Source: Acidobacteriota bacterium (GTDB lineage Bacteria; Acidobacteriota; Thermoanaerobaculia; Multivoradales; J023). Taken from it: a DNA stretch of 64,000 nt. The notes beneath the pieces were generated by a model that was given only the letters and a program-made list of their open reading frames with translations, had not been told where the DNA came from and searched no databases. A program made the position numbers and the translations under genes. The DNA lies in contig JAJCXO010000206.1 in assembly GCA_029263395.1 (NCBI GenBank), positions 690 through 64,689 of the forward strand, written 5' to 3'. Below are positions 5,207 to 55,337 of this stretch, piece by piece (position 1 is the stretch's first letter; the number at the start of each line of letters is the position of its first letter).

Positions 5207-5791
5207 ATGGCGGCAACCTCAGCGGCAACATCATTGAGTTCAAATCCCGACCTCGACCTGGCCACGCGGCATCGTTACGGCGATCCAAAGGCTTTTGAGG
5301 AAGTCTACAGCCGCTACGCACAGATGATCTTCAATCTCGCCTATCGAATGTCGGGAAAACCCGAAGAGGCAGAGGACTTGACCCAGGAGATCTTCCTTCG
5401 CATCCACCGCCATTTGGCCCGATTCAACGGCCGTTCCGCCCTAAAGACATGGGTCTACCGAGTCACCCTGAATCACTGCCGTAGCAAGCTAGGGCGACGT
5501 CACTATCCAACCCAACCCCTCGCTGATGAGAATGACGGTGAAGGCGTCAATCTGGTTGACGAGAGTCGAGACCCCGAAGACCTCGCCCTCGCTCGGGACG
5601 CCAGCCGCCAGATCAGTTTGGCGTTGCGACAGGTCAAACCGGTTTTTCGCGAGGCAGTCGTCCTGCGTGATCTCCAAGGGTTGAGCTACGATGAAATCGC
5701 CGAGATCCTAGAAGTGCGGGTTGGTACGGTACGATCCCGTATCGCCCGCGGCCGTGACCGCCTCCGGGTCGTTCTGGAGAAATCCTCATGA
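5207..5791 (+). CDS. ECF RNA polymerase sigma factor (SigW/RpoE-like)
   Basis: AEDLTQEIFLR, SALKTWVYRVTLN, LSYDEIAEIL..GTVRSRIARGR; start could be 5195. Confidence 0.9.
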   Translation: MAATSAATSLSSNPDLDLATRHRYGDPKAFEEVYSRYAQMIFNLAYRMSGKPEEAEDLTQEIFLRIHRHLARFNGRSALKTWVYRVTLNHCRSKLGRRHYPTQPLADENDGEGVNLVDESRDPEDLALARDASRQISLALRQVKPVFREAVVLRDLQGLSYDEIAEILEVRVGTVRSRIARGRDRLRVVLEKSS

Positions 5792-6435
5792 CCTCCCACG
5801 CATCGGCAGAAATGCTCTCCGCCTATCTCGACCAACAACTCGTGGCGCGAGAGGCTCGCGAACTCGAGGAACATCTCGAGACATGTTCGCAATGCCACGT
5901 TCGCCTCGAAGGCCTTCGTAAGGTTATCGACAACCTGCGCAGTATCCATGAGCTGTCTCCACCCTCGACGCTGCAACAGGCCGTGGTGCGGCGGATCGCC
6001 TTGACCGACGAACCGCCCGGATTGCTCGACCGCTTCGAGCAAGGGCTATCACTCCTCAATCGGCAGAATCCGATTCTTGCCATGTTCGGGGTGGTGATCG
6101 CCCTGGTGCTTTTCATCTACTTGTTTTCCTACAACCTGAAACTGCACGAGAATCAGAACAGCACCATTCCGGTAATTTTTCAAGATCCCCCGGCCGCCAT
6201 CGCCGACATCGCTGCTGGCACCCGACTAGTGGTCGCTGACCGTTCATTGGTCTGGAGTGCCGAGGGTTATTGGCTCGAAGAGGGCATTGATGTGGGAGCG
6301 GTCAGCCACAGCCTCGAGATCGACTCTAGTGCTGGCAGTGAGCTGTTGGCTGCCCACCCCAAGCTTGCCGAAGTGGCGGCGCTCGGCAGAGCTGCGGTGA
6401 TCAACATCGAAGGCGATGTTATCCGCCTAGAGTGA
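5788..6435 (+). CDS. zf-HC2 transmembrane anti-sigma factor
   Basis: LSAYLD...HLETCSQC (HxxxCxxC), one TM helix, ATGA overlap with the sigma gene. Confidence 0.85.
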   Translation: MTSHASAEMLSAYLDQQLVAREARELEEHLETCSQCHVRLEGLRKVIDNLRSIHELSPPSTLQQAVVRRIALTDEPPGLLDRFEQGLSLLNRQNPILAMFGVVIALVLFIYLFSYNLKLHENQNSTIPVIFQDPPAAIADIAAGTRLVVADRSLVWSAEGYWLEEGIDVGAVSHSLEIDSSAGSELLAAHPKLAEVAALGRAAVINIEGDVIRLE

Positions 6436-6583
6436 TCGCCTGACAGGCCACGCTAGAAACCCACGGACCGGTCCTTTACGACCAGACCGGGTTAATCGAT
6501 TTATCACTACACGGCCTCAGGTGTGGTAGAACTCGCTGACGCCAATCCAAGGCAGCGAAGAACACCTGAGAGGACCGGTCCAG

Positions 6584-8740
6584 ATGCACAGCCCTATCCA
6601 GCCTCAGATTCCGACACACCACGTGACGGAAATCGAAATGCCGCGCGAGTTCGAGCAGCTCTACTCCCTGGCCTACAACCTATGGTGGGTGTGGACGCCC
6701 GAAGCCCGCGAGCTGTTTTCGGCAATCGACAGTGCCAAGTGGGGTCTGTATCGGAACCCCGTCCAGCTGCTGATCAACGTCGACCCCAAACGATGGTATC
6801 CGCTGCTCGAGAACGAAGCGTTCCTATCGAAGTACCACAAGGTCATGCGTGCCTTTGACGACTACATGCAGCCCGAAAACGGCACTTGGTTCCAGAACAA
6901 CCATCCCGAGGCCGCCAGCGACACTATCGCCTACTTCTCGATGGAGTATGGGCTCCATCAATCGCTGGCGCTCTACTCGGGAGGCCTCGGCGTCCTGTCG
7001 GGCGATCACTGCAAGGCGGCGAGCGATCTTGGCCTGCCCCTGGTCGCCATCGGCCTACTCTACCGCCAGGGTTATTTCCAACAGACTATCGACGCTGATG
7101 GTCTCCAGCAGCACACCTATCCAGAATACGATTTCACCCGGCTGCCGTTACGTCCAATCGCTTCCGCAACTGGCCGCGAGGTCACCATCCCGGTACCGTT
7201 ACCGGGCCGGGACGTCAAAGCCAAGCTGTGGCTAGCCCAGGTTGGGCGTGTCCCACTCATCCTGCTCGATACCGACATCCCCGAGAATGATCCCGCAGAT
7301 CGGCCCATCGCCAACCAGCTTTATGTCAGCGGCCGTGAGATGCGGCTTCTACAAGAGATCATGCTCGGTATCGGCGGCGTCAAGGCGCTGCGAGCTGTCG
7401 GCATTGAACCATCGGTGTGGCACCTCAACGAGGGCCACAGCGTTTTTCTGCAACTCGAGCGGCTACGGGAGTATCAAGCCAACGGCCTCGATCTCGGCCA
7501 GGCAAGACAGCGGATTCGTTCCAATGCCGTCTTCACGACCCACACTCCGGTCCCGGCGGGCAACGAGCAATTTGATTTCGGGCTAATCGACAAATACTTC
7601 CGTTCATGGTGTGACACCACCGGAACTCCCCTCGACGAGCTCCTGGACCTCGGCCGGGCGCATCACGGCGACGACTCCTTCAACCTCACCGCCCTGGCAA
7701 TCCGTACCACTCGCTGGGCGAACGGCGTCAGCAAACTCAACGCTGAGGTTGCAGGCCGGATGTGGCGTCATCTCTTCCCCGAAGGCAGCGCTGAACCGCC
7801 GATTCATGCCATCACCAACGGCGTCCACGCCCGAACTTGGCTCGGCCAGGAAACGCAAACGCTACTGAGATCGCGACTCGACCCCCACTGGGAGGCCATG
7901 CTCCTATCCGACGACGGCTGGGATCGCATAACCCAAATTCCGGATCACGAGTTATGGGCCAGTCACCAGGCCCAGAAGGACCGCCTCGGCCGATTCACAT
8001 CTTCGCGACTGCAAGAACAATACGCTCGCCATGGTGCGTCTCCTGACGAGCTACGTGCAGTTCCCGCACTGTTCGACCCTCGCGCTCTGACTATTGGTTT
8101 CGCCCGCCGATTCGCGACTTACAAGCGGGCCAAGCTAGTTTTCTCCGACGAACATCGATTAAGGGCTCTCCTGACTGACGAAGAACGGCCGGTGCAGATG
8201 ATTTTCGCCGGTAAAGCTCATCCCGCTGATCGCCCGGGGCAGGAACTCATTCAGCATATTTTCGAACTCAGTCGAAACGCAGGATTCTCCGGCAAGGTCT
8301 TCTTCTTGGAGAATTACGACATGCGCATGGGCCGCATGCTGGTGCAAGGTGTCGACGTCTGGCTCAACACACCACGACGGCCCCTCGAAGCCAGCGGCAC
8401 CAGCGGCCAGAAGGTTGCGATGAACGGTGGCCTGAATTTTTCGATCGCTGATGGCTGGTGGCCCGAAGGCTGGAATGGCGACAACGGCTGGGTGATCGGT
8501 TCTTCTCAGGCCGAACTCGATGACGACCACCAAGATGCGGCTGACGCAGGATCGCTCTACGAAATCCTAGAAACTCTGATCGTGCCAACCTACTACGAGC
8601 GCGATGACACCGGACTACCCCGGCGTTGGATCCGAATGATGAAAGCTTCGATCGCATCGCTGACCTCTAGCTTCTCTGCTAGCCGTATGGTCAGGGACTA
8701 CGCCGAGAACGCCTATCTGCCCGCGGCGGGGAAACATTGA
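6584..8740 (+). CDS. glgP: alpha-glucan (glycogen/maltodextrin) phosphorylase
   Basis: YFSMEYG, YSGGLGVLSGD, HLNEGH, GFARRFATYKR, EASGTSGQK PLP motif. Confidence 0.95.
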   Translation: MHSPIQPQIPTHHVTEIEMPREFEQLYSLAYNLWWVWTPEARELFSAIDSAKWGLYRNPVQLLINVDPKRWYPLLENEAFLSKYHKVMRAFDDYMQPENGTWFQNNHPEAASDTIAYFSMEYGLHQSLALYSGGLGVLSGDHCKAASDLGLPLVAIGLLYRQGYFQQTIDADGLQQHTYPEYDFTRLPLRPIASATGREVTIPVPLPGRDVKAKLWLAQVGRVPLILLDTDIPENDPADRPIANQLYVSGREMRLLQEIMLGIGGVKALRAVGIEPSVWHLNEGHSVFLQLERLREYQANGLDLGQARQRIRSNAVFTTHTPVPAGNEQFDFGLIDKYFRSWCDTTGTPLDELLDLGRAHHGDDSFNLTALAIRTTRWANGVSKLNAEVAGRMWRHLFPEGSAEPPIHAITNGVHARTWLGQETQTLLRSRLDPHWEAMLLSDDGWDRITQIPDHELWASHQAQKDRLGRFTSSRLQEQYARHGASPDELRAVPALFDPRALTIGFARRFATYKRAKLVFSDEHRLRALLTDEERPVQMIFAGKAHPADRPGQELIQHIFELSRNAGFSGKVFFLENYDMRMGRMLVQGVDVWLNTPRRPLEASGTSGQKVAMNGGLNFSIADGWWPEGWNGDNGWVIGSSQAELDDDHQDAADAGSLYEILETLIVPTYYERDDTGLPRRWIRMMKASIASLTSSFSASRMVRDYAENAYLPAAGKH

Positions 8741-43131: not shown

Positions 43132-43257
43132 AAAAGGCAACCTAGGGGGACTTCAGTCCCGTTCGGTTTTCTGTTCACTTTCCCGCCATTGCGTCGCCTC
43201 ACTGGGAAACCCAACGGCCACAACGTCCGATTGTGGCTGTTCATCCAAGGAGTTCTC

Positions 43258-45930
43258 ATGATGTCCACGCCGGTGCCCAGGCACACTCTCATTGCACTCA
43301 CCATCCTGATTGTCACCAGCCTATTCCCCACCACCGCAACCGCAGGCACTCAACTTTGCGACAGCACCGTCAGCACCTCTGCTAGCGGCCTCTACGGCAC
43401 AACGCCGCCGATGGCCTTCGACGGCACCAACGCCACAGCATTCCGTTCGAGCAACAACAACTGGCAATTCCTCCAGTTGCGTTTCGACTGCGAGATCGAG
43501 CTCACCGCATTGCGCCGTTTTATGACGCCGAACGGCTCCTCGACCAACGGTCATCGTGGCTGGCAAGGCGAGCAGGTGTCGTACTCCCTCGACGGCCAGA
43601 CCTTCCACTACATCACTCCTGCCGCCAGCAGTGGTTGGGAAAGTTATGTCGCTTACCATCCGCGGGCTTGGCACTCGGTCGAATACGGCCTGTCACGGTG
43701 GTTGGTACCCGATCAGAAGATCCGCGCTCGTTATGTGCGCTTTCACTGGGACGGCAACTACGACTACCTGCATGAGGTTGAGCTCGACGCACGCGCCGTG
43801 TTGGAAACCACCAACTTCCGCCTCACCCAGAGTGGCATGGTCACCACTGCCGTCCCCTCGCAGCCCCTGGTCGCCGGTAAGACAACTCTGCTGCGAGCAA
43901 CGGTGATCCGCGTTGCTGGCGGCCCAACGACCGCCGACGAAGCCTTCGTCGACGTGATTCGCGAAGATACCGGCGCAGTCACCGGCACGATACGCGGCCA
44001 CGCCATCGCCAGTGACAACCGTTCGCTGCGCACCACAATCGCGGAAGGCGAAGACGTCCATTTTTTCATTCCCGGCAGGCGACTGCGCGATGAAACGACT
44101 TACCGCTTCCGGGTGCGGTTGGTGTCCGGTGGACAGAGCCATACCACCACGGTATTTACCGGCATCGCAACCCGCGAAAACGCTGGCCTACCGGTTCTCT
44201 TCACCGACTACAACGAAGGGCTGTTCGCCTCCCTCGGTGACCTCTTACGTTTCATCGACGCGGTCATCCACACCAGTCGCATCCTGCCGATCAAAGATAC
44301 CAACGATGGCTTGCTGCCGTACGGCACCCCGACCACCGGAGCCAGAGGTTTACGTTACGAGTACGTCATGAACCTGCCCCTGGCTTCTCCCGGTCGCCTC
44401 GGCCAATTTGTTCAAGACTTTGTACAAAACGACACGACCGTTGGCACCGGAAACAATGCGGCGGGTCAAAACTGTGCCTCCAACATCCCGCGAGCATTCA
44501 ATGCCGGCCCCTTCTTCGCCTACAACTTCACCTTTCCCGAAGACCTCGACGGCAACAACGTCCTCGACGCCGCTGAGCTTGCTCAATGCAGGCCGGGAGC
44601 TGGAGGCACCGACAGCCCACTCAGAACACGGATCAGCAACTTCGGCAGCCGCATCTGGACCGATATCGCACAGCGCAAAGCGTCGACCATGGCGAGCGGA
44701 CGCGAGTTTCCAAACTATGGCCTGCAACTGGTGCCCAATGGGCCGACGCGGCATCACCGTCTCAATTGGCTAGGTTATGCCGGGCCAACCTCTGGCTGGG
44801 CTGCGGTCAGCATGGCCGGCAACCCGTTCCCAGCCCTACCTCACGAGCTTGTCCACGAACTCGGCCGCAACCACTCCCCCACAACCTCCCTGCCTGGGCC
44901 AGGCTATGACCTGAAACGCAAACGGCGAGTACCCAATCCCTTCGATCTGATGGCGGGTTCCTTCGACCCTAACCAGAACTTCTTTAATTCGTTCATGAGC
45001 GACACCGACTGGAACGCCCTGCTGGCCACGATCCCGACCGCCTCAGGGCAAACGCAGCCGCCGCCGATCGGGCCACCGACCGTGCGCATGACCGGCACTA
45101 TCGACAGCCAAGGCACCCTGAGTATATTGCGCACCCGGACCCTCCCCGCGGCCACTGAGCTCGAGAGCCTGAACGCGGACATGACCGTGGCGCTGTTGGA
45201 CGACGGCGACAACGTCCTCACCTCCGGCCCGGTGGAAGTATCCGAGGCCGGCGGTGCCGACTGGCCCAAGGAGCTGCCGCCACCGCTCAATCTCGATCTA
45301 CGCGGTGAGGTCGAATGGGTTGAAGAAGCTGTTGCCTTGGCGGTATTCGACGAGTCGGGCCAAGAGTTGACCCGACTCGACATCTCATCAACCGCGCCGG
45401 TCGTCACCGTGCTCGATGTCGACACCGAGAGCGATCCAATCGTCGTCGACTGGAAGGGCTACGATCCGGACAAAAACACCCCCACGTACGATGTCAGCTT
45501 CGTTTACCCTGACGGTCGGGAAGTCCTCGCCGCCGCTGAAGTCGACGCTCAACAAACAAAGATCCCGGCCAACCGAGTCCCGGGCGGCGACGACGTCGCC
45601 GTGCGGGTACGTGCCACCGACGGCTTCCGCGTCTCAGTCGACGAACTGTCCGGCCTCAGTCTGCCGAATCGCGCCCCGCAGATCACCATCCTGGCTCCAG
45701 TGGCAGGCGAAACCTTCGAGACGGGTGCAGCGGTTGCTCTCGTGGCAACCACCCAAGACCTCGAGGACGAGGCCGTCGACGTGACCTGGACCTCGGACCA
45801 CGACGGCTTCCTAGGCACTGGCGATGAGCTGACCCTGAAGCTGTCCTCCGGCAGCCACCAACTCACCGCTACTGCCTCCGACACGGCGGGCGGCGAAAGC
45901 ACGATGTCGGTCGCGATCACCGTCGAATAA
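43258..45930 (+). CDS. Secreted metzincin-type metallopeptidase with discoidin (F5/8 C)-like and Ig-like domains
   Basis: AAGGAG RBS, signal peptide, AFDG..TAF...ARYVRF discoidin, HELVHELGRNH (HExxHxxGxxH), Met-turn DLMAG, C-terminal NRAPQITI...WTSD..G.LGTG Ig-like domain. Confidence 0.75.
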   Translation: MMSTPVPRHTLIALTILIVTSLFPTTATAGTQLCDSTVSTSASGLYGTTPPMAFDGTNATAFRSSNNNWQFLQLRFDCEIELTALRRFMTPNGSSTNGHRGWQGEQVSYSLDGQTFHYITPAASSGWESYVAYHPRAWHSVEYGLSRWLVPDQKIRARYVRFHWDGNYDYLHEVELDARAVLETTNFRLTQSGMVTTAVPSQPLVAGKTTLLRATVIRVAGGPTTADEAFVDVIREDTGAVTGTIRGHAIASDNRSLRTTIAEGEDVHFFIPGRRLRDETTYRFRVRLVSGGQSHTTTVFTGIATRENAGLPVLFTDYNEGLFASLGDLLRFIDAVIHTSRILPIKDTNDGLLPYGTPTTGARGLRYEYVMNLPLASPGRLGQFVQDFVQNDTTVGTGNNAAGQNCASNIPRAFNAGPFFAYNFTFPEDLDGNNVLDAAELAQCRPGAGGTDSPLRTRISNFGSRIWTDIAQRKASTMASGREFPNYGLQLVPNGPTRHHRLNWLGYAGPTSGWAAVSMAGNPFPALPHELVHELGRNHSPTTSLPGPGYDLKRKRRVPNPFDLMAGSFDPNQNFFNSFMSDTDWNALLATIPTASGQTQPPPIGPPTVRMTGTIDSQGTLSILRTRTLPAATELESLNADMTVALLDDGDNVLTSGPVEVSEAGGADWPKELPPPLNLDLRGEVEWVEEAVALAVFDESGQELTRLDISSTAPVVTVLDVDTESDPIVVDWKGYDPDKNTPTYDVSFVYPDGREVLAAAEVDAQQTKIPANRVPGGDDVAVRVRATDGFRVSVDELSGLSLPNRAPQITILAPVAGETFETGAAVALVATTQDLEDEAVDVTWTSDHDGFLGTGDELTLKLSSGSHQLTATASDTAGGESTMSVAITVE

Positions 45931-47074: not shown

Positions 47075-47917
47075 TTACTGAATCGGCGCCAACAACTCAG
47101 GCGCGGTCACCAACTGGCGCACACCGTGGGACTCGGTCTCACCGAAAATATTGTCACTTTCAGCCCAACGGTGCAGCGATGCGATATCGAGCTTCGCACA
47201 CGTCGGTCGGACGCTCCAGGTCACCTTGAACGGCGAACACTCAGACTGAGTGAAGTCCGGTCCGGTGCTGGACCCGAAGAATTCCACCGGGTCGCCGGTT
47301 CCGCTCGGCAGCGAGGCCGCCTGATGAAAGTCATTACGCACCGTACCGTTGTAGGCAAATTCAGCAAAATCCAAGGCGTTGCTATCATTTACGACTAGGA
47401 ACGTCTGGGCCTCGACGCGAAGGAGCGGCTCGCCGCAGGTATCCGTCACGCAAGCATTGAGGGTGGGTCCCGGCGTCTCGATGGGGCAACTGGTGTGAAC
47501 CCAATGCACTTCGATCGTGTCACCTGGTTTGACTTTCCCGTACGCACCCTCGAGCGGCTCGAGCTCGGCCTCGGTCAGGTCCGCCGTCTCGTTACAGGCA
47601 TAACCGCCGTAATCGCTGTCGTCGACGAAGACGCTGAACCCAGGGCCTTTGTGCTCGGCGTTGGTGTGGGTGTGGAGGTTACACAGATTCATCTCACTGG
47701 GCGCTGGCGCCCGATCGATCGGAGTGGTGTTGAGTCCATGGGGGTTAGAGATATCCCGTGGTGTCTGTGGACCGGCATCGACACACAGAGCAGGCGTTTC
47801 GACAACCGCTTCCGGCTCAGGTTGCACCGCGGCGGTTTCGGCGGTCTCGGTGGGTTCAGAACCGCAACCAGAGAAGATCAAAGCGATAGCGGTGAAGAGG
47901 ATCAAACAGCGACTCAT
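47075..47917 (-). CDS. delta-class carbonic anhydrase-like lipoprotein
   Basis: Lipobox FSGC; GPQTPRDI, NLCNLHTHTNAEHK, TIEVHWVHTSC, GSSTGP, SPFKVTWSV, HGVRQLV. Confidence 0.8.
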   Translation of the reverse strand: MSRCLILFTAIALIFSGCGSEPTETAETAAVQPEPEAVVETPALCVDAGPQTPRDISNPHGLNTTPIDRAPAPSEMNLCNLHTHTNAEHKGPGFSVFVDDSDYGGYACNETADLTEAELEPLEGAYGKVKPGDTIEVHWVHTSCPIETPGPTLNACVTDTCGEPLLRVEAQTFLVVNDSNALDFAEFAYNGTVRNDFHQAASLPSGTGDPVEFFGSSTGPDFTQSECSPFKVTWSVRPTCAKLDIASLHRWAESDNIFGETESHGVRQLVTAPELLAPIQ

Positions 47918-48047
47918 GGGGTTCTCCTGAAGAAAATTGGACACACTTTTGCCCTGAAAGGCTCACTTGGCGAGACTGTCACCAGTGTCATGGCCATCCT
48001 ATACAGGAATCTTCGTAGGATCCGAGTGGCCAGATTCAAAGCCACAG

Positions 48048-48428: not shown

Positions 48429-48583
48429 CAAGACGCCACAATCTCGACCGAGAGGCAAGACGCCCTGTGAAAGTTAGGCCCTTGATGTTACTTGTTGGCG
48501 GTGACGAGCGAAACGTACGGTGTCAGCTACGCGGGCGTTGGCCTAGCGATCCACTCACTCGACATTCCTCAAAGGATATGGAT

Positions 48584-49045
48584 ATGACCCACCTCACTCA
48601 AAAGACTCGCTCCCTCCCCGATCTCATCGTGTTGTTGCTGCTGTTTTTTGCCGCTAGCACCCAGGTAGCTGCCCAAGGCGCCACTGCAGCCGGCGCCACT
48701 GCAGCCGGCGCCACTGTAGCCAGCGGATCTTGGACCAAGAAGACGCAGTCTGCGAGCGGTACCTGGAAGATCACCGAAGCCGGCGACCAATTGAAGTTCG
48801 AGGTCAGTAGCGACTTCAAGACTCGCAAAGCGCCCGATCTGAAGATTTTTCTCTCTCCACTGACCGCCAGCGAAGCTCAGAATAACAACGCCGTCAACGA
48901 GTCGCTTTTAGTTGCTGAACTGCCCAAGGTTTCGGGCAGCTTCGAGGTCACCTTGCCCGCGGGCACCAACCTCAGTGATTACAACAGCGTCCTCGTTCAC
49001 TGTGAGAAGTACACCAAGCTGTGGGTAGCCTCGGATCTCCACTGA
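48584..49045 (+). CDS. DM13 domain-containing exported protein
   Basis: Signal peptide; FKTRKAPDLKIFLS, YNSVLVHCEKY. Confidence 0.8.
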   Translation: MTHLTQKTRSLPDLIVLLLLFFAASTQVAAQGATAAGATAAGATVASGSWTKKTQSASGTWKITEAGDQLKFEVSSDFKTRKAPDLKIFLSPLTASEAQNNNAVNESLLVAELPKVSGSFEVTLPAGTNLSDYNSVLVHCEKYTKLWVASDLH

Positions 49046-49069: not shown

Positions 49070-49795
49070 CTACCGGACGATGATCTCCTCGCCGAGTTCG
49101 ACGCGACCACCCGCCTCGAGCACGGCGCCACAATCGGCGTCGAGATCACCGGCCGGTGCTGGCAACCGGTTCGGCGATTGTAAAACAACCGGCTGGTAAC
49201 GTCCGATCCCCTCGGTAGCCGCTCGCAGGCTCAGTCGTCCCTCAATGGAGACACAGTCCGAGGAGCTGGTCTCCTCGCTCACACCCGTCTCCGCGGGTAG
49301 ACAACGAGCCACCAGCTGCCGGTCGTTAAGATAGAGACGCAGTTCGAGATGTTGATCGGGATCACCTTCGGCGTCGAGGACCAGGACATCACCGGGGCGT
49401 GCAGTCTGCCCACGGAAGGCGACTGTACTGTGCTCGACGCGAGTGGCGAGACTGAGCTCCGGCGGTTCGCTCCACCGGGGACTGAAAATAGCCATTGCCA
49501 ACCCAGCAGCGGCAGCCAACGAGGCGACCGGCCACCAACCACGACTGGACGTCAGGGGTGATACCTGCGGCGCGTCCAGTCTTCGATCCCGGATCCGTCG
49601 TCGCACTTGCTGCTGCCAATCGGCAGCGGGCTCTTCAGCCTTCCCCAATTCGGCAAGGTCTCGCATGAGCGTTTCGTAGGCTGCCCGCTGCTCCACACAG
49701 TCAGGACAGGAGACAAAGTGGCCGGTCAGCGACAGTCCGGATTCCAATCGTTCAAGGCCTTCGCTCTCGAACCGTCGACAAGGGCTCACGCTCAT
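49070..49795 (-). CDS. zf-HC2-type transmembrane anti-sigma factor
   Basis: HFVSCPDC, TM WWPVASLAAAAGLAMAIF, extracytoplasmic beta domain; ATGA overlap with sigma. Confidence 0.75.
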   Translation of the reverse strand: MSVSPCRRFESEGLERLESGLSLTGHFVSCPDCVEQRAAYETLMRDLAELGKAEEPAADWQQQVRRRIRDRRLDAPQVSPLTSSRGWWPVASLAAAAGLAMAIFSPRWSEPPELSLATRVEHSTVAFRGQTARPGDVLVLDAEGDPDQHLELRLYLNDRQLVARCLPAETGVSEETSSSDCVSIEGRLSLRAATEGIGRYQPVVLQSPNRLPAPAGDLDADCGAVLEAGGRVELGEEIIVR

Positions 49796-50565
49796 GGTGT
49801 GGCTCCTTTGGACTCCAGGCAGTGGCGGAGCGCCGGCAGGGCTCGCACCACGCGAGCCCGCAGGGCCGGTGGGCGTTCATCTGCCACCCGCGCCATCTCG
49901 ACATAGGACAAGCCTTGCTGGAATCGCAGCAGGATCGCATCGCGCACTCTTGGCCCGAGTGCGGCTAGACAGTCGGCCAACGCTGCCAAATGGCTGCGGG
50001 CGGAAAGCTGATCGTCTTGGGGTGGCAATGGAGACGGCCGCTCGGGCAACCGATCGGTGAGCTGGAAACGTCGATCCCGACGACGGCGAATCTTGACGGC
50101 GTCGAGACTACGATGGCGAGCGATGCCAAACAACCAAGTCCGCAGGGAAGAGTGCCCACGAAACCCCTCGAGACCATCATAGGCCTGGATGAACGTGGTC
50201 TGATGGACCTCTTCCGCCAATTCAGCATCACCTACCAAGTGTCGACAGTAGCGGTAGACGGCGGTCCCGAAGGTGTCCATCAACACCTCCAGAGCGCAGT
50301 CGAGATCGCCTCGGGCGATGGCCTGGCGAACGAGGGTTTCAGGCCTGTCGAGTGCGCGGTCAGGCTCAGGCTCGTCCAGCCGATCGCTGGTGCCGGGTGA
50401 GAGCACCCGGCTGGGATACCGGACCACAGCTGGCGATGGCCTCGAGTCGGGTTCCAACCCACTGCTCGACTTCGAGACCGTCTTGGGCGTGGAGACTGCG
50501 TTAGGCGTGGAGACCGTGCTAGGCATCGGACCGCTGCTAGGCAGCACTGGCTCAAATGTTCTCAC
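49792..50565 (-). CDS. ECF RNA polymerase sigma factor
   Basis: AEEVHQTTFIQAY, SSLRTWLFGIARHR, GLSYVEMA. Confidence 0.88.
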   Translation of the reverse strand: MRTFEPVLPSSGPMPSTVSTPNAVSTPKTVSKSSSGLEPDSRPSPAVVRYPSRVLSPGTSDRLDEPEPDRALDRPETLVRQAIARGDLDCALEVLMDTFGTAVYRYCRHLVGDAELAEEVHQTTFIQAYDGLEGFRGHSSLRTWLFGIARHRSLDAVKIRRRRDRRFQLTDRLPERPSPLPPQDDQLSARSHLAALADCLAALGPRVRDAILLRFQQGLSYVEMARVADERPPALRARVVRALPALRHCLESKGATP

Positions 50566-50673
50566 GTGGTATCCCTTGAACCGTTCACTGCTGGAGATTT
50601 GGACCGCCAGCCCCTTAGGAACGTCGTTACTTCATGAGGCGACGCTGGCCGCTCAAAACGAACAGGTCGAGCC

Positions 50674-51162
50674 TCAAGGGATTGGGTCGACTGGATCAAC
50701 CCCCGGCAAGATCGCCTGGATATAGGGGTTCGGCAGCGGCGGGCGAATCGGGAAACAGCCTGCTGGGAGCTCCGCACAGGGCAGGAAGACACCGTCTTCG
50801 AACTGGGCAATCGGTACCATGCGATAGAAGGTCATGGCTTCGACTGAGGTGAGATCCAACTCGACGGTTTCGGGGGTTTGTAGGAGTTCACTGTCGCCGA
50901 GCTCTAACCATGCATTGGGATCGGTCAAAGAAGCAAAGCCGATGTAGGCCGCATCGGGGCCGCCGACCGAAATCTTCAATTGCTGGTCGGTTTGCTGCCA
51001 GGTGAAGAATCCACCTTCGCCACCCGAACTGTCGGTGGGATCATCGGACGGTGCTGCGATGGCGACCTGGGGCGACCAGCCGAGCTGACCGAGAGTCAAA
51101 CCAGCGCCGAAAATCGTCAGCGCGGCACAAACTATGAGGGATAGACCAAACCAGTGTTTCAT
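50674..51162 (-). CDS. Small exported or membrane-anchored hypothetical protein with Pro-rich tail
   Basis: AGGAG RBS, signal-like N-terminus, C-terminal PCAELPAGCFPIRPPLPNP. Confidence 0.7.
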   Translation of the reverse strand: MKHWFGLSLIVCAALTIFGAGLTLGQLGWSPQVAIAAPSDDPTDSSGGEGGFFTWQQTDQQLKISVGGPDAAYIGFASLTDPNAWLELGDSELLQTPETVELDLTSVEAMTFYRMVPIAQFEDGVFLPCAELPAGCFPIRPPLPNPYIQAILPGVDPVDPIP

Positions 51163-51222
51163 GAGGTACTCCTAGGTTGAGTTGAGGTTTTGGCAACAGG
51201 TAGTGTTCACTGCATCGAAGTT

Positions 51223-53748
51223 TCACGGAGCCAACGGTGTCGACTGGTTGAGGCTTGTCGGTCTTGGCCGATCGGCGAACAACCCCAGGACCACAAATGG
51301 CGCCCAGGTGGCAACCGGCTGCCCGACAGCGATGAGCTCACGTTGGGCGCTGGCCAGGGCAAAGACCGGGTCCTCGAGCCCGCCGTGGCGATAGAACGCA
51401 AGCGCAACGGCTTCAGCATCAGCATCGGGAACCGACACCAACGACGCCACCACGGCTTCGCTGCCAGCGGCGAGAAATACCGCACCGAGGGAGCCCCACA
51501 GCTCACGCCCTGGGCGCGCTGCCGAGGCGCAGGTTGCCAACACAGTGAGGCGCGGGGCACGAGTCTTGGCCAGCAGGACATCTGCCGCCAACGGCCCGTC
51601 AGCGAGTGCGATCCATGGTCCACCAGGGCCGAGGCCGGTGTGGGTTGCGAGATGCAACACGGCGGGCCGAGTCGACTCGTGCCAAAGGCCCTGCTCTGCA
51701 GCATCGCCGAGCCAAGGTGTCGACCCGACGAGCTCGGCAACCGCAATCGCCTCGGAACGCGCCCGCGGTAGATCACCCAGCGGATCGCCAAGCACCAACG
51801 GCGGGCCGACCTCGCCCCTGGGCCGCTCCAGCAACGCGGCCAGCGCCTCCAGGCTCGGCACGTACGTCACCGGATGGCGCTCGACCAGATATCGCCCGTC
51901 GATTCGCAACGCGGCAAACGGTAAACGACCGAGGGCACCATCGGTCACGATCATCAAAGGCTCGTCAGCTCCCGGAAGCCCGCTCGTCGGCAAGACTTGG
52001 GCACCCAATTGTGCCGCCAGTTGGTGGTCGTCCAAGTTGGCGAGAAATGTATCCACAGTGGCCTCGATATCCGCCGAGTCACCGAGTCGACGCCAGGATC
52101 CCGCGACGCCACTCAAAACCCATAGTGCGCCATCAGCTTCGAAATAGCTCAACACCGACCTATGCCGCAGGTTGTGGCGCAACTCGCCCACCGGCCGCGG
52201 TTCGGGTGACGGCGCGGCAGCAACCGCTGGCAACAACCCTTCGAGCACCCGCAAGCGTTCCAGCGCGGCGGCGCCAACATCGACTCGCTCCGGATCGGAG
52301 AACTTCGGTACCGTCTCGCTATCGGCCACCGTCTTGCTATCGGCCACCGTCTTGCCATGGTCTACCGTCGCATCGAGACCTCGGACAAAGGCGTCGAGAA
52401 AGGTGCGCGCCCGCGCTCGCTCGACGATCGCCAGTGCCTCGTCGGAGCGCCCTTGATGCAACAGTAACAGAAAAAGCGCTTCGAAGGTCTGTCTCTTCTT
52501 CTCGAGCAACCACGGCTTGAGGGTGTCGAGGGCGAGCGCACGACGCATCGCTTCGACCTCGACGATAGCGGCCCGATATGCAGCCTCAGCGGCAACAAGG
52601 TTACCCCGGGCCTCCTCCACTCTCCCCAGCAGCTGTTGCAAGGTCCAGATCCAGTCTGTCACTGGCGAGGCGACGAGCGCCGTTGCCAGATCCCGGGCGG
52701 CTGCGTCCCAGCGCCCTTCCTGATGAGCCAACCGAGCACGATAATAAAGTAGCGAGGTCGGCAGACGCCGATCTTGGCCGGGGCTCTGATCATGAAGACC
52801 CTGATCACCACGGCCCTGATCACCGAGACTATGATCCGCCGCGTGTTCGAAGGCGGCATCCAAATGGAAGTGAGCCCGCTCCAACGCTCCACGTCGTAAA
52901 GCGATCTCGACCAGGTTCAGGTGGGTCGAGCGGAAAAGCTGGCTGCCGAGCTCCACGCTGCTTTGATCGGAGCTCTCAGCCGCAACCTCGAGCGCCCGCA
53001 AGGTAGCATCGCGGGCGAGCGACAACCGCCCACTGTCGAGCCACAAGTCGCCTTCGTGCGCCAACAAGAAGGCATCATCCTGCGGACTGTCGGCGGCCAA
53101 CCCCTCACGCAGCTGCTGCACCGCGCGGGCACTGTCCAGGTCACCAACTGCGGACAACACCCCCTGCTGCATCTCGACGGCCAACTTCTCTACCCGTGCG
53201 TCGCCTTCGCGACGTGCCACCACCGCGGAGTCCAAGGCATAGGCGAGTGCTGACCGATACTGCGTCTGGCTCCATTCGAGGTAGGCCAAGAGGTACAGCG
53301 TCCAAGCCTCTTTGGATGCCTCGGCTGAAACTGGTTGCAGGCTGCCAGAGGTTTCGACCGTCAAGCGCTCGAGTTCAAGCGCTCGTTCGAGGGCCGTGCG
53401 AGCAGCCGTGATCTCCTTTCGATCACGCCAGATGCTGGACGCCAGGCGTAACACTTCAGCATGCTGTCGGGTACCCGCCAAACGTCCGGACCAAGCCAGA
53501 ACTTCGTCGAGGTGGCCCAGCTCGAGCTGAGAGCGGGCCGCCCCCAACCCGGCCTTGGCATCACCCTCAGCAGCAAACGCAGCAGCACAAACCTCGGCCG
53601 CTTTGGAAGGGTCTCCGGCCTGCAACAAGGCCTCACACGAGCGCTGGCCAGGATGACAACCGAGCACAGCACACCCTGCCATCAGCACCAAACCGCCGGC
53701 TGAGGACCAGGGACGCCGAAGCAAAAGTGAGGGATTCATCGCAACCAT
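51223..53748 (-). CDS. TPR-CHAT domain (caspase-like) lipoprotein
   Basis: Lipobox VLGC, TPR-like helices, ERARARTFLD, DGALGRLPFAAL, LHLATH (His), VLATCAS (Cys), VVASL..V.D, WAPFVVLG. Confidence 0.88.
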   Translation of the reverse strand: MVAMNPSLLLRRPWSSAGGLVLMAGCAVLGCHPGQRSCEALLQAGDPSKAAEVCAAAFAAEGDAKAGLGAARSQLELGHLDEVLAWSGRLAGTRQHAEVLRLASSIWRDRKEITAARTALERALELERLTVETSGSLQPVSAEASKEAWTLYLLAYLEWSQTQYRSALAYALDSAVVARREGDARVEKLAVEMQQGVLSAVGDLDSARAVQQLREGLAADSPQDDAFLLAHEGDLWLDSGRLSLARDATLRALEVAAESSDQSSVELGSQLFRSTHLNLVEIALRRGALERAHFHLDAAFEHAADHSLGDQGRGDQGLHDQSPGQDRRLPTSLLYYRARLAHQEGRWDAAARDLATALVASPVTDWIWTLQQLLGRVEEARGNLVAAEAAYRAAIVEVEAMRRALALDTLKPWLLEKKRQTFEALFLLLLHQGRSDEALAIVERARARTFLDAFVRGLDATVDHGKTVADSKTVADSETVPKFSDPERVDVGAAALERLRVLEGLLPAVAAAPSPEPRPVGELRHNLRHRSVLSYFEADGALWVLSGVAGSWRRLGDSADIEATVDTFLANLDDHQLAAQLGAQVLPTSGLPGADEPLMIVTDGALGRLPFAALRIDGRYLVERHPVTYVPSLEALAALLERPRGEVGPPLVLGDPLGDLPRARSEAIAVAELVGSTPWLGDAAEQGLWHESTRPAVLHLATHTGLGPGGPWIALADGPLAADVLLAKTRAPRLTVLATCASAARPGRELWGSLGAVFLAAGSEAVVASLVSVPDADAEAVALAFYRHGGLEDPVFALASAQRELIAVGQPVATWAPFVVLGLFADRPRPTSLNQSTPLAP

Positions 53749-54357
53749 TCGATTAATAGTTAAGGGAGGGACAGTTCGGACTTAGCCGGTCCACTATGAA
53801 ACGATCGTGGACCACTCACCTAGGAAGACGGTCTTCACCTAGGAAGACTCTGCAACCGTCCGAATTGTCCCACCCACGTTGATCTTTTTTCGTCGTTATC
53901 GTCTGGGGGCTGGATGTCTGCACGAATCTTCCGGCCGCCAACCACCGGATATGATCCGACTCTCGAGCAACGTTTAGAAGCGGCAAACCATGGATGCAGT
54001 CCATCCAGCAGGGCCGACTCAGCACCTCTACGGTCGCCACAAGGGGCCCCGTTGCCAGATGAGCTTCAACAGCGCCTGATCCCAGGATCGACGATCTACT
54101 GGCGAATCGTCGAGCGGGCTGAGCTCGAACGCCGGGAGTCGGCGCTGTTTCGCTTTCAGCTCGCAGCCGAGAGCCCCTCGCATCCTTGACTCGCCCGGCC
54201 ACCTGCCTAGCTTTGGCGTTGATGCTGGTTGCGCCTCGCCAAGCTTGACACGCTGGCCAACATAACCACCCGTCATCCCGCCAACTGGGCCGCCTTCGTC
54301 TTGATCATCCAATGTAGAATAGGCTAGCAGCACAATGGTCTCGACAAGGTCGTGCCT

Positions 54358-54693
54358 ATGCCTAGTGACGCCCAATCGATACATCCCACACTACCTGGTG
54401 ATCTGCGGCCCCTCTTTTGGGACTACGATTTTCAAGATCTGTGCTGGGACGATGATCGAGCCCTGATCATCCGTCGAGTTTTGACCTCGGGCCCTTGGGA
54501 CAGCGTGCAATGGCTGCGTTCCAGAGTGAATGATGACACGCTGGGACGCTGGATCATCGACCACCAGGGCCGCGGGTTGAGTCCACAGCAACTTCGTTTT
54601 TGGCAATTGATCCTCGATCTACCGACCGAGCAGGTTGATGGGTGGCTGGCTGACCGGCAAACCGATCCCTGGCATCACCGACAGGCCTCATGA
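54358..54693 (+). CDS. DUF6922-like antitoxin partner
   Basis: PLFWDYD, IIRRVL..G.W..V.WL, LRFWQLIL; overlaps the next gene (ATGA). Confidence 0.7.
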   Translation: MPSDAQSIHPTLPGDLRPLFWDYDFQDLCWDDDRALIIRRVLTSGPWDSVQWLRSRVNDDTLGRWIIDHQGRGLSPQQLRFWQLILDLPTEQVDGWLADRQTDPWHHRQAS

Positions 54694-55337
54694 CGTTTCA
54701 CTCCGAGGTCCTAACGACACCTCAGATCCACGCTCTTCACGCGATGGGACCGGCCATGACAACCGGTCACTTTTATCTTGCTGGAGGCACCGCCCTGGCC
54801 ATCATCCTCGGGCACCGCCTGTCGGTTGACCTCGACTGGTTCACCCGTAAACGATTTGCAGATCCGATGCGTTTAGCCGCCGAGCTGCGAGATGACGGAA
54901 TCCAGCTAAAGACAACACGGGTGGAACGCGGCACTCTGCATGGCCATATCGACGATGTGCGGGTCAGTCTGCTCGAATATCGCTATCCATTGCTAGCTCC
55001 CGTCATCGTATGGAGCGAGCATCAATGTGCACTCGTCTCGCTCGACGATATCGCTTGCATGAAGCTGTCTGCGATCAGTCAACGCGGAGCCAGGAAAGAC
55101 TTCGTCGACCTCTACGCACTCGTCCAACGGCACCGACCGCTGGATGAGCTTCTGAAGCTGTACCAAAAGAAATACGACACGACAGATATCGGACATGTTC
55201 TAGTGTCCTTAGCCTACTTTGACGACGCCGAGCGAGAGCGGATGCCAAAGATGCTTTGGGATGTGAGCTGGCAGGATCTCAAGACTCAGATCCAGAGGTG
55301 GGTGCTGGACCTAGCGCTGCCCCCTGTGTCTGGGTAG
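54690..55337 (+). CDS. AbiEii/AbiGii family nucleotidyltransferase toxin
   Basis: FYLAGGTALA..LGHRLSVDLDWF, IACMKLSAI.QRG.RKDFVDLY. Confidence 0.88.
   Translation: MTFHSEVLTTPQIHALHAMGPAMTTGHFYLAGGTALAIILGHRLSVDLDWFTRKRFADPMRLAAELRDDGIQLKTTRVERGTLHGHIDDVRVSLLEYRYPLLAPVIVWSEHQCALVSLDDIACMKLSAISQRGARKDFVDLYALVQRHRPLDELLKLYQKKYDTTDIGHVLVSLAYFDDAERERMPKMLWDVSWQDLKTQIQRWVLDLALPPVSG

Follow-up and report, generated by a model that had tools for sequence, protein, structure and literature searches.

The closest described relative of the system reported here is DdvA of Myxococcus xanthus, the transmembrane anti-sigma partner of DdvS, a sigma factor of the extracytoplasmic function (ECF) type (PMC11506125). 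DdvA is one polypeptide, in which a membrane helix follows a CHCC zinc domain (C6, H28, C32, C35) and a long linker leads on to the periplasmic TPR-CHAT region; self-cleavage by CHAT in trans was proposed as the site-1 step ahead of RseP (PMC11506125). The protein is an arrow-shaped dimer, and its CHAT domain is without a three-helix motif. DdvA truncated after the linker (residues 1-128 or 1-140) was degraded in an RseP-dependent manner in Myxococcus, and fused DdvA forms are reported in the main text only from Myxococcota and one Comamonas (PMC11506125). Here, a stretch of 64,000 nucleotides from an Acidobacteriota bacterium (hereafter the window; G000:C206:690-64689, in a source genome of 10.7 Mb that is 96% complete) was analyzed, which carries a cassette of four genes encoding a TPR-CHAT lipoprotein, a small exported protein, an ECF sigma factor and a single-pass anti-sigma factor. 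The cassette is real and conserved, and many Thermoanaerobaculia (Acidobacteriota) keep the four genes together. The evidence tips slightly towards a split DdvA/DdvS-like switch, in which the CHAT protein would cut the anti-sigma at or near Arg128-Gly129 upon a signal. As a concept, the cassette is a variant of the published DdvA hypothesis and not a new kind of system. The four genes are:

51223..53748, minus strand: TPR-CHAT lipoprotein gene, 841 aa counted from the first ATG
50674..51162, minus strand: small exported protein gene, 162 aa
49792..50565, minus strand: ECF sigma gene, 257 aa from GTG 50565
49070..49795, minus strand: single-pass anti-sigma gene, 241 aa

Like DdvA, the cassette combines a periplasmic TPR-CHAT His/Cys dyad, with a proposed site-1 role before RseP, with a CHCC centre of the same spacing type, a single membrane helix and an ECF partner. 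Unlike in DdvA, the TPR-CHAT part is not fused and is encoded by a separate lipoprotein gene with its own signal peptide, and the anti-sigma has a small Ig-like outer domain with an Arg-Gly loop where DdvA has a long flexible linker. A fourth gene, for the small Cys-loop/poly-Pro protein, is added, and the phylum is Acidobacteriota. Moreover, no CBASS (cyclic-oligonucleotide-based antiphage signalling system) or CRISPR genes were detected near the cassette: the four proteins gave no PADLOC match and no cas gene was present among 97 flank open reading frames (ORFs) of 11 loci, while CRISPR arrays were not searched for.

In the sigma-E system of E. coli, the single-pass anti-sigma RseA is cut by DegS at site 1 and by RseP at site 2, and RseB serves as periplasmic modulator. 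The cassette resembles this system in its single-pass anti-sigma, in a candidate periplasmic site-1 cut a few tens of residues past the membrane, in an RseP-type site-2 protease and in a small, possibly modulatory periplasmic protein. However, its candidate site-1 protease is a caspase-fold cysteine protease of the same operon and not a DegS-type serine protease, and its putative modulator has no relation to RseB and accompanies the gene for the protease.

In the type III-E craspase, the TPR-CHAT protein Csx29 cuts Csx30, which controls a sigma factor (PMC10028731), and cleavage occurs after Met or Leu, as quoted in PMC11506125. The first-pass annotation of the window had drawn the Csx29/Csx30 parallel. 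It holds for the proposed mechanism, as in both cases a TPR-CHAT protease would act on a protein that restrains sigma, but it does not identify the closest system, which is DdvA, not named in that annotation. Craspase is cytoplasmic, RNA-guided and bound to Cas7-11, whereas the cassette has a protease that is predicted to be exported, a membrane protein of the classical zinc-motif kind as its anti-sigma, and a candidate site after Arg. Separase-securin likewise combines a TPR-like scaffold with a CHAT-type protease, cleavage after Arg and control by a small pseudosubstrate (PMC11506125); this pair is eukaryotic and cytoplasmic, and no homology between securin and the small protein is expected. 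In Actinobacteria, ECF54 has CHAT, subtilase and carboxypeptidase-regulatory genes in its context (PMC8999054; PMC7826278). A conserved neighbourhood of ECF sigma and TPR-CHAT is thus common to both, but ECF54 is without an anti-sigma, and both its phylum and its set of genes differ from those of the cassette. No paper on a split form came up in full-text literature searches that combined CHAT with ECF, anti-sigma or periplasm. The main text of PMC11506125 contains none of the terms 'stand-alone', 'standalone', 'separate polypeptide' and 'Acidobacteri', and the main text of PMC7826278 contains neither 'CHAT' nor 'caspase'; the supplement of the latter may describe other CHAT-context groups.

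Conservation of the four-gene cassette

The first-pass annotation had described four co-oriented genes, and all four ORFs were found on the minus strand with exactly the coordinates given above. The ATG of the anti-sigma gene overlaps the sigma stop codon by 4 nt (ATGA), indicating translational coupling. The proposed association of the genes was borne out by a neighbourhood survey. A collection scan seeded with the anti-sigma alignment alone returned 31 loci, six of which are the same records as genomes of our own G-numbered set. At 24/31 loci, the genes for CHAT, the small protein, sigma and the anti-sigma follow one another in this sequence on one strand. Elsewhere, CHAT and the small gene are convergent to the sigma pair (L086, 1/31), the CHAT genes are decayed (L083 and L088, 2/31), contig ends cut the loci (L062, which begins with the small gene, and L068, 2/31), or no CHAT gene is present within 7 kb (L075 and L085, 2/31). 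For L085, which is the same as G026, CHAT and the small gene are located on another contig. The genome of L075 has only CHAT-domain paralogues and no full-length orthologue, and its sigma is truncated, indicating that this locus is a remnant. The order CHAT, small gene, sigma, anti-sigma was also observed in eight related genomes (G003, G004, G008, G010, G015, G035, G043 and G053). A locus scan seeded with the single CHAT protein, on the other hand, found no relative.

The anti-sigma was found in 13/61 relatives, the window's own genome counted. CHAT orthologues or remnants were present in 12 of these 13 genomes and in G001, where the contig ends inside the CHAT gene. Among 400 evenly sampled Acidobacteriota genomes, only one besides the own genome (G152) has the anti-sigma at E<=1e-12, indicating that the cassette family is narrow within the genomes searched. 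G152 belongs to another family of the phylum, and its two gene pairs are divergent and 3.1 kb apart. At loci with a different arrangement, the small gene still accompanies CHAT, and the anti-sigma still accompanies sigma. Joint decay of both modules was seen in G060, G011 and the genome of L075.

The CHAT orthologues are 38-73% identical across 29 loci, and a maximum-likelihood tree united the 29 cassette CHAT proteins in a single clade (100/100) that excluded six paralogues from the window's genome. No flanking gene was common to more than 6/28 loci, and Pfam annotation of the 97 flank ORFs, from 11 of 17 loci, was heterogeneous, with no cas family among them, indicating that the four genes are a self-contained cassette. 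All four genes are under purifying selection, with ratios of nonsynonymous to synonymous substitution rates (dN/dS) of 0.12-0.89; these are rough Nei-Gojobori estimates from five locus pairs, which are not independent of one another. The estimates were 0.16-0.42 for CHAT, 0.12-0.22 for sigma and 0.17-0.42 for the anti-sigma.

The sigma factor and its anti-sigma

The sigma protein matched Sigma70_r2 (9.5e-14) and r4_2 (1.5e-7), both above the Pfam cut-off, and TIGR02937 (sigma70-ECF) with 76.7 bits against a cut-off of 42.9; no NCBIfam equivalog reached its cut-off. It has regions 2 and 4 only and matches the ECF superfamily model, as ECF (group 4) factors do. Its start is uncertain (GTG 50565, GTG 50547 or ATG 50526), and its N-terminal 70-90 residues are of low complexity and not conserved.

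The anti-sigma is a single-copy gene in the genome, with the following elements:

49697..49780, minus strand: CHCC zinc motif, Cys6, His26, Cys30 and Cys33
49478..49537, minus strand: membrane helix, residues 87-106 of the anti-sigma (helix 91-104 by DSSP on the AF2 model)
49409..49414, minus strand: Arg128-Gly129, candidate site-1 cleavage site in loop 122-136 between outer-domain strands 1 and 2

The HxxxCxxC motif, the one transmembrane segment and the VAFRG sequence named by the first-pass annotation were all recovered, as H26-x3-C30-x2-C33, a single helix and V125-A-F-R128-G129. All four CHCC residues are invariant in 24 paired anti-sigma sequences; in the alignment of 34 sequences, the motif was lost only in L057 and the His alone in L051. 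With this motif and the coupling to a sigma gene, the protein has the features of the zinc-binding anti-sigma (ZAS, zf-HC2) class. Among the curated family models, no Pfam family matched at E<=0.01, the NCBIfam model 'antisigma' NF052375 gave 32.2 bits, below its cut-off of 100, and the anti-sigma profile matched RsiW in the PDB with an E value of 0.23. The hydrophobic stretch reads WWPVASLAAAAGLAMAIFSP, and an Arg-rich stretch on the N-terminal side of the helix fits an N-in topology.

The AF2 model of the anti-sigma, built on the 34 sequences, had a mean predicted local distance difference test score (pLDDT) of 84.8, with helices at 8-74 and a beta sandwich at 115-240. This outer domain matched VH/nanobody-like Ig domains (Foldseek, TM to target 0.5-0.6). 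A V-set Ig homology was considered and dropped, as the disulfide C165/C181 joins neighbouring strands. As a lead only, an ESM Atlas search with the outer domain gave 0.90 to unnamed clusters of ~134 aa, which are commonest in Myxococcota.

The proposed R/G site is well conserved, in agreement with the first-pass expectation of a kept xRG: Arg128 is present in 34/34 sequences and Gly129 in 32/34 (Ser in L046 and L051). From the membrane helix up to the second outer-domain strand, no other residue pair than R128-G129 is invariant, and insertions are tolerated just after Gly129 in L045, L048, L049 and L062. Arg128 sits 22 residues past the end of the hydrophobic helix, in a loop modelled as coil (mean pLDDT 65 for residues 121-130, AF2). 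Conservation of loop 122-136 was 0.72, compared with 0.48 for the juxtamembrane linker. An RseP-like site-2 protease is also encoded in the genome (G000:C161:378-1691; Peptidase_M50 5e-63, two PDZ stretches).

The TPR-CHAT protein

The CHAT protein matched Pfam CHAT (PF12770) at residues 577-822 with 111.2 bits against a cut-off of 24 (E 8.2e-32), and a TPR region spans approximately residues 32-560, where Pfam TPR matches were weak. Two sites were of particular interest:

51529..51642, minus strand: catalytic dyad, His703 (codon 51640-51642, LHLATHTG) and Cys740 (codon 51529-51531, VLATCAS)
53656..53673, minus strand: lipobox region with Cys26 and Cys31 (LMAGC / VLGC), where the signal peptide ends

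Both the lipobox and the His/Cys dyad of the first-pass annotation proved to be family features. LHLATH corresponds to residues 698-703 and LATCAS to residues 737-742; His703 and Cys740 are invariant in the CHAT alignments, and the patterns HxAxH and [LV]AxC are kept in 26/26 orthologues plus the window (27/27). The N-terminus, MVAMNPSLLLRRPWSSAGGLVLMAGCAVLGC, bears the lipobox. By motif, a Cys-bearing lipobox abuts the conserved mature N-terminus in 23/27 orthologues including the window; the lipobox Cys is replaced by Gly in L059, L071 and L074, and L080 is ambiguous. The signal peptide and the lipobox Cys in 23/27 proteins indicate that the CHAT protein is predicted to be extracytoplasmic. 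Judging from an alignment with the upstream region of G004, its real start is likely the ATG at 53739 (MNPSL). The term 'trans-envelope', used for the unit in the first-pass annotation, found no support: three orthologues are without the lipobox Cys, and outer-membrane anchoring of CHAT as the basis for this term was dropped.

No solved chain matched the CHAT domain in sequence (best E 0.24). When profiles of CHAT and the anti-sigma were searched against solved chains, only TPR matches were returned, from a set in which the presence of DdvA chains was not confirmed.

Predicted complex of CHAT and the anti-sigma outer domain

Complex prediction for CHAT and the outer domain of the anti-sigma, a check that the first-pass annotation had suggested, placed the Arg128-Gly129 loop at the active site. 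The prediction was made with CHAT 32-841 and anti-sigma 105-241, using alignments of the same 24 loci. The complex scored 0.69, while the best of three controls scored 0.01. A mark of 0.69 is reached by 58/80 solved complexes and 2/110 mismatched pairs, counts that hold only roughly here because custom alignments were used. The runs agreed in at least 47% of contacts, and the pLDDT of the partner was at least 76.

The predicted interface has two parts. One is formed by CHAT 241-247, in the TPR region, with anti-sigma 219-226, 232 and 234, and shows the lowest predicted error. The other brings anti-sigma 125-131 and 133-134 together with CHAT 659-663, 701-706, 714, 738-739 and 771-775; the residues of this part lie on either side of His703 and Cys740, and invariant Asp775 is among them. 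The predicted complex thus supports binding of CHAT to the outer domain of the anti-sigma.

The small exported protein

The 162-aa protein with two Cys and a Pro-rich tail was confirmed as the first-pass annotation had described it, with a hydrophobic N-terminal helix at residues 3-25, a signal peptide or anchor, and with Cys129 and Cys136 near the C-terminus:

50722..50778, minus strand: conserved C-terminal motif in the small protein, Cys129-x6-Cys136 and then a Pro-rich stretch

Most orthologues carry this motif as C-x(3-7)-C-P-x-PPPPPP, and beyond Met1 no alignment column is invariant except C129, C136 and P146. The mean share of the commonest residue was 0.60 in the Cys/Pro stretch and 0.37 in the sandwich. 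According to the AF2 model (24 sequences, pLDDT 70.5), helix 3-25 is followed by a disordered linker, a beta sandwich at about 50-127 and an unstructured tail. No fold was assigned, since the best structural match had a Z score of only 4.5. The protein had no match in Pfam, NCBIfam or PADLOC, and an ESM Atlas search gave 0.83 without pointing to a family. Among 1.84 billion representatives, a profile search found 161 proteins at E<=0.001, nearly all of 100-175 aa, indicating a small family. Homology of the two small beta domains, that of the small protein and the anti-sigma outer domain, was not supported by hhalign (probability 1.9%). A PEP-CTERM-like sorting signal was considered for the Pro-rich tail and dropped, as no hydrophobic segment follows the tail.

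A small ORF that starts with a hydrophobic stretch and ends in Cys-x(3-7)-Cys plus a Pro run lies between CHAT and sigma in 8/8 loci and in 21/21 further gaps. It directly follows CHAT also where the two gene pairs are unlinked (G026), convergent (L086) or divergent (G152). Because the small gene travels with CHAT and not with the sigma pair, the role of its product narrows to that of a protease partner. The first-pass annotation had left it as ligand, inhibitor or output, and the linkage in all arrangements reduces this to a partner of the protease, which could be an inhibitor, an adaptor or a signal receiver.

The small protein is the fastest evolving of the four, with dN/dS of 0.22, 0.89, 0.22, 0.54 and 0.81 in the five pairs. 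The values of 0.89 and 0.81 belong to the close pairs L064/L067 and L059/L060, where the neighbouring genes have 0.2-0.4; they point to relaxed or diversifying selection on the sandwich, with the Cys/Pro tail fixed. In a subgroup with short proteins (~95 aa), only the signal peptide and the Cys/Pro motif are kept. Two irregular loci were noted. L069, from a Thermoanaerobaculaceae metagenome-assembled genome, has two tandem small genes (5431-5859 and 5949-6380), and in L071 (5848-6398), from a different metagenome-assembled genome, the signal-peptide half and the Cys/Pro half are in different frames, by a frameshift or an assembly error.

Further triads in the same genome

Eight further triads of sigma, membrane protein and TPR-CHAT were found in the same genome and confirmed by Pfam, four of them with zf-HC2 anti-sigmas above the cut-off:

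G000 contigs C58, C223, C225, C283, C128, C28, C121 and C252: eight further triads, loci L095-L102

They consist of an ECF-type sigma, a membrane protein of 240-370 aa and an exported TPR-CHAT protein of 840-1220 aa, and in most of them sigma comes first, then the membrane protein, then CHAT. Fusion to an H-x3-C-x2-C zinc motif occurs in none of the genome's 42 CHAT ORFs. A sigma region-2 match lies within 2 kb of 13/42 CHAT ORFs, where simple arithmetic gives ~1 expected.

Candidate promoter and neighbouring genes

Upstream of the cassette, one candidate promoter was noted as a lead only:

53845..53871, minus strand: candidate ECF-type promoter GGGACAA-N-GTCT, ~105-130 nt upstream of the likely CHAT start

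Its bases are identical at 25/27 positions between the window and G004. Promoters of this class occur in 4/27 orthologous upstream regions, which is not significant (shuffle mean 1.0, maximum 6), and the strict motif had four matches in the genome and defined no regulon. A dyad k-mer count over the upstream regions gave no shared motif. A consensus sigma-70 scan found 0 promoter-like sites, together with two terminator-like sites, both inside genes.

Immediately upstream of the cassette lies a DUF6922 / AbiEii toxin-antitoxin pair (window 54352-55337, plus strand). In the same neighbourhood of the congener G004 (L044 696-1346 and 11075-12957), a DarT and Macro pair and a further triad of sigma, 225-aa ORF and CHAT were present. 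With the toxin-antitoxin pair, DarT/Macro and the extra triad nearby, the place where the cassette sits looks variable in the genus, as if genes of the conflict type gather there. On the other side, window 47075-47944 (minus strand) and 48467-49045 (plus strand) encode a carbonic anhydrase of the delta class (CA_like, 7e-60), whose N-terminus resembles that of a lipoprotein, and an exported DM13-domain protein; the latter is directly downstream of the anti-sigma, and DM13 is likewise found near the G004 cassette. A 913-aa ORF at window 43189-45930 (plus strand) has an N-terminal signal-like stretch, HELVHELGRNH (HExxH-type) and weak F5/8 type C and PKD/Ig matches; it is possibly a secreted metalloprotease, with no family above its cut-off. 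A second ECF sigma and, after it, an ORF that weakly matches the anti-sigma profile by its N-terminal part (E 5e-4) are present in the window at about 5306-5497 and 5788-6432 (plus strand; G000:C206:5995-6186 and 6477-7121). At two loci of another family (L048 2616-5402 and L049 9154-11370), a Ser/Thr protein kinase with a long TPR region lies no more than a few kb from the cassette.

Discussion

The conserved linkage, the dyad, the invariant Arg128 and the predicted docking make CHAT site-1 cleavage of the anti-sigma the best reading of this cassette. In the resting state, the zinc-motif single-pass anti-sigma would hold the ECF sigma at the inner membrane, as family features suggest, and according to sequence and model its Ig-like outer domain would display the invariant Arg128-Gly129 loop ~22 residues past the helix. 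The TPR-CHAT protein is probably exported and, in most members, lipid-anchored, judging by its motifs. It would dock at two sites, both predicted with controls: the TPR surface 241-247 may hold the outer-domain helix 219-226, and the active-site cleft at His703/Cys740 may receive loop 125-131. Upon a signal, the CHAT protease would cut at or near Arg128, the remaining stub would become a substrate of the genome's RseP-type protease, and sigma would be freed. The small, fast-evolving Cys-loop/poly-Pro protein would be a dedicated partner of CHAT. CHAT as a site-1 protease that acts on the anti-sigma and releases sigma had already been put forward by the first-pass annotation; comparative and modelling data support its elements of linkage, dyad, R/G pair and docking, and the cutting and the release that would follow are what we infer from them.

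Several observations weigh against this reading. In DdvA, CHAT self-cleavage was not demonstrated, and dyad mutants were without phenotype in the absence of the unknown signal (PMC11506125). The 27 regions upstream of the cassette genes revealed no conserved promoter of the sigma type. No RNA sequencing run contains the locus, which appears in two DNA runs, from one biofilm-metagenome study. The invariant Arg could be structural, as part of an Ig-like domain. The complex score is the model's confidence only, and part of the pose could be a memory of solved CHAT complexes with a peptide in the cleft, such as separase-securin and craspase, since these exist; a counterpoint is that the CHAT domain is without a sequence match to solved chains, as described above. 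Finally, the small gene is tied to CHAT more tightly than the anti-sigma is, so that the real target of CHAT could be the small protein.

A loop docked in the cleft would fit a pseudosubstrate inhibitor as well as a substrate, and the predicted pose cannot tell the two apart. CHAT and the outer domain might bind while the Arg128 loop stays uncut: either the anti-sigma would hold the protease inactive in a securin-like manner, or CHAT/TPR would be a non-cutting co-sensor that alters the anti-sigma by binding or by letting go, with a different protease processing the anti-sigma afterwards. Separase is indeed controlled by the pseudosubstrate securin, and the DdvA dyad is in a resting geometry (PMC11506125); moreover, the lowest predicted error lies at the contact of TPR and helix (241-247 with 219-226) and not at the cleft. 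However, strict retention of the dyad in 27/27 proteins argues for catalysis on some substrate, and a site 22 residues past the helix, with a bulky domain beyond, is in keeping with a cut that takes away a steric block, in the manner of regulated intramembrane proteolysis. Overall, we regard an uncut loop as unlikely. The other possibility raised above, that the small protein or other envelope or foreign proteins are the true CHAT substrate, also receives a low probability from us. The sigma pair would then merely control expression of the protease pair or sense its product, for example a released Cys-loop/poly-Pro peptide that binds the Ig-like domain. This would agree with the fact that CHAT and the small gene are contiguous whether the two pairs are co-directional, convergent, divergent or unlinked, with the disordered linker and tail, with the two tandem copies in L069, and with the fastest evolution of the four (dN/dS up to 0.81-0.89 in 2/5 pairs), as might be expected of a bait or a receptor. 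On the other hand, the small protein offers no invariant residue besides the two Cys and Pro residues, the linkage to the sigma pair is kept over a long evolutionary distance and ends in joint decay in G060, G011 and the L075 genome, and the complex prediction supports direct contact of CHAT with the anti-sigma.

A simple lack of functional coupling is highly improbable. CHAT and ECF sigma genes are numerous in this genome (42 CHAT and 63 sigma region-2 matches), and some might be adjacent by chance or by loose co-regulation. However, orthologous linkage at 24/31 loci in several families, a sigma gene close to 13/42 CHAT ORFs where ~1 is expected, and a complex prediction that passes its controls all argue for coupling.

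For the preferred reading, cleavage of the anti-sigma by CHAT, a wider form can be put forward tentatively. Exported CHAT proteases may be the dedicated site-1 proteases of a large unrecognised class of ECF systems, with the Arg-Gly loop as 'bait' and with the small protein as signal receiver or securin-like brake, perhaps sensing foreign periplasmic proteins; we consider this possible, with the balance somewhat against it. The nine triads in one genome suggest a common mode of envelope signalling that is absent from accessible ECF classifications, and such triads would be a major signalling theme in this genome. DdvA, the one studied CHAT-bearing anti-sigma, is a fused, dimeric membrane protein, and for want of a known trigger its proposed self-cleavage was not open to a test. 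The cassette divides protease, target domain and candidate regulator among three separate, small or soluble periplasmic parts. With separate parts, a defined candidate site and a predicted docking, the question of a caspase-fold site-1 protease becomes a simple in vitro cleavage experiment. The value of the cassette thus lies in offering a soluble, three-part and site-defined test of the published DdvA hypothesis.

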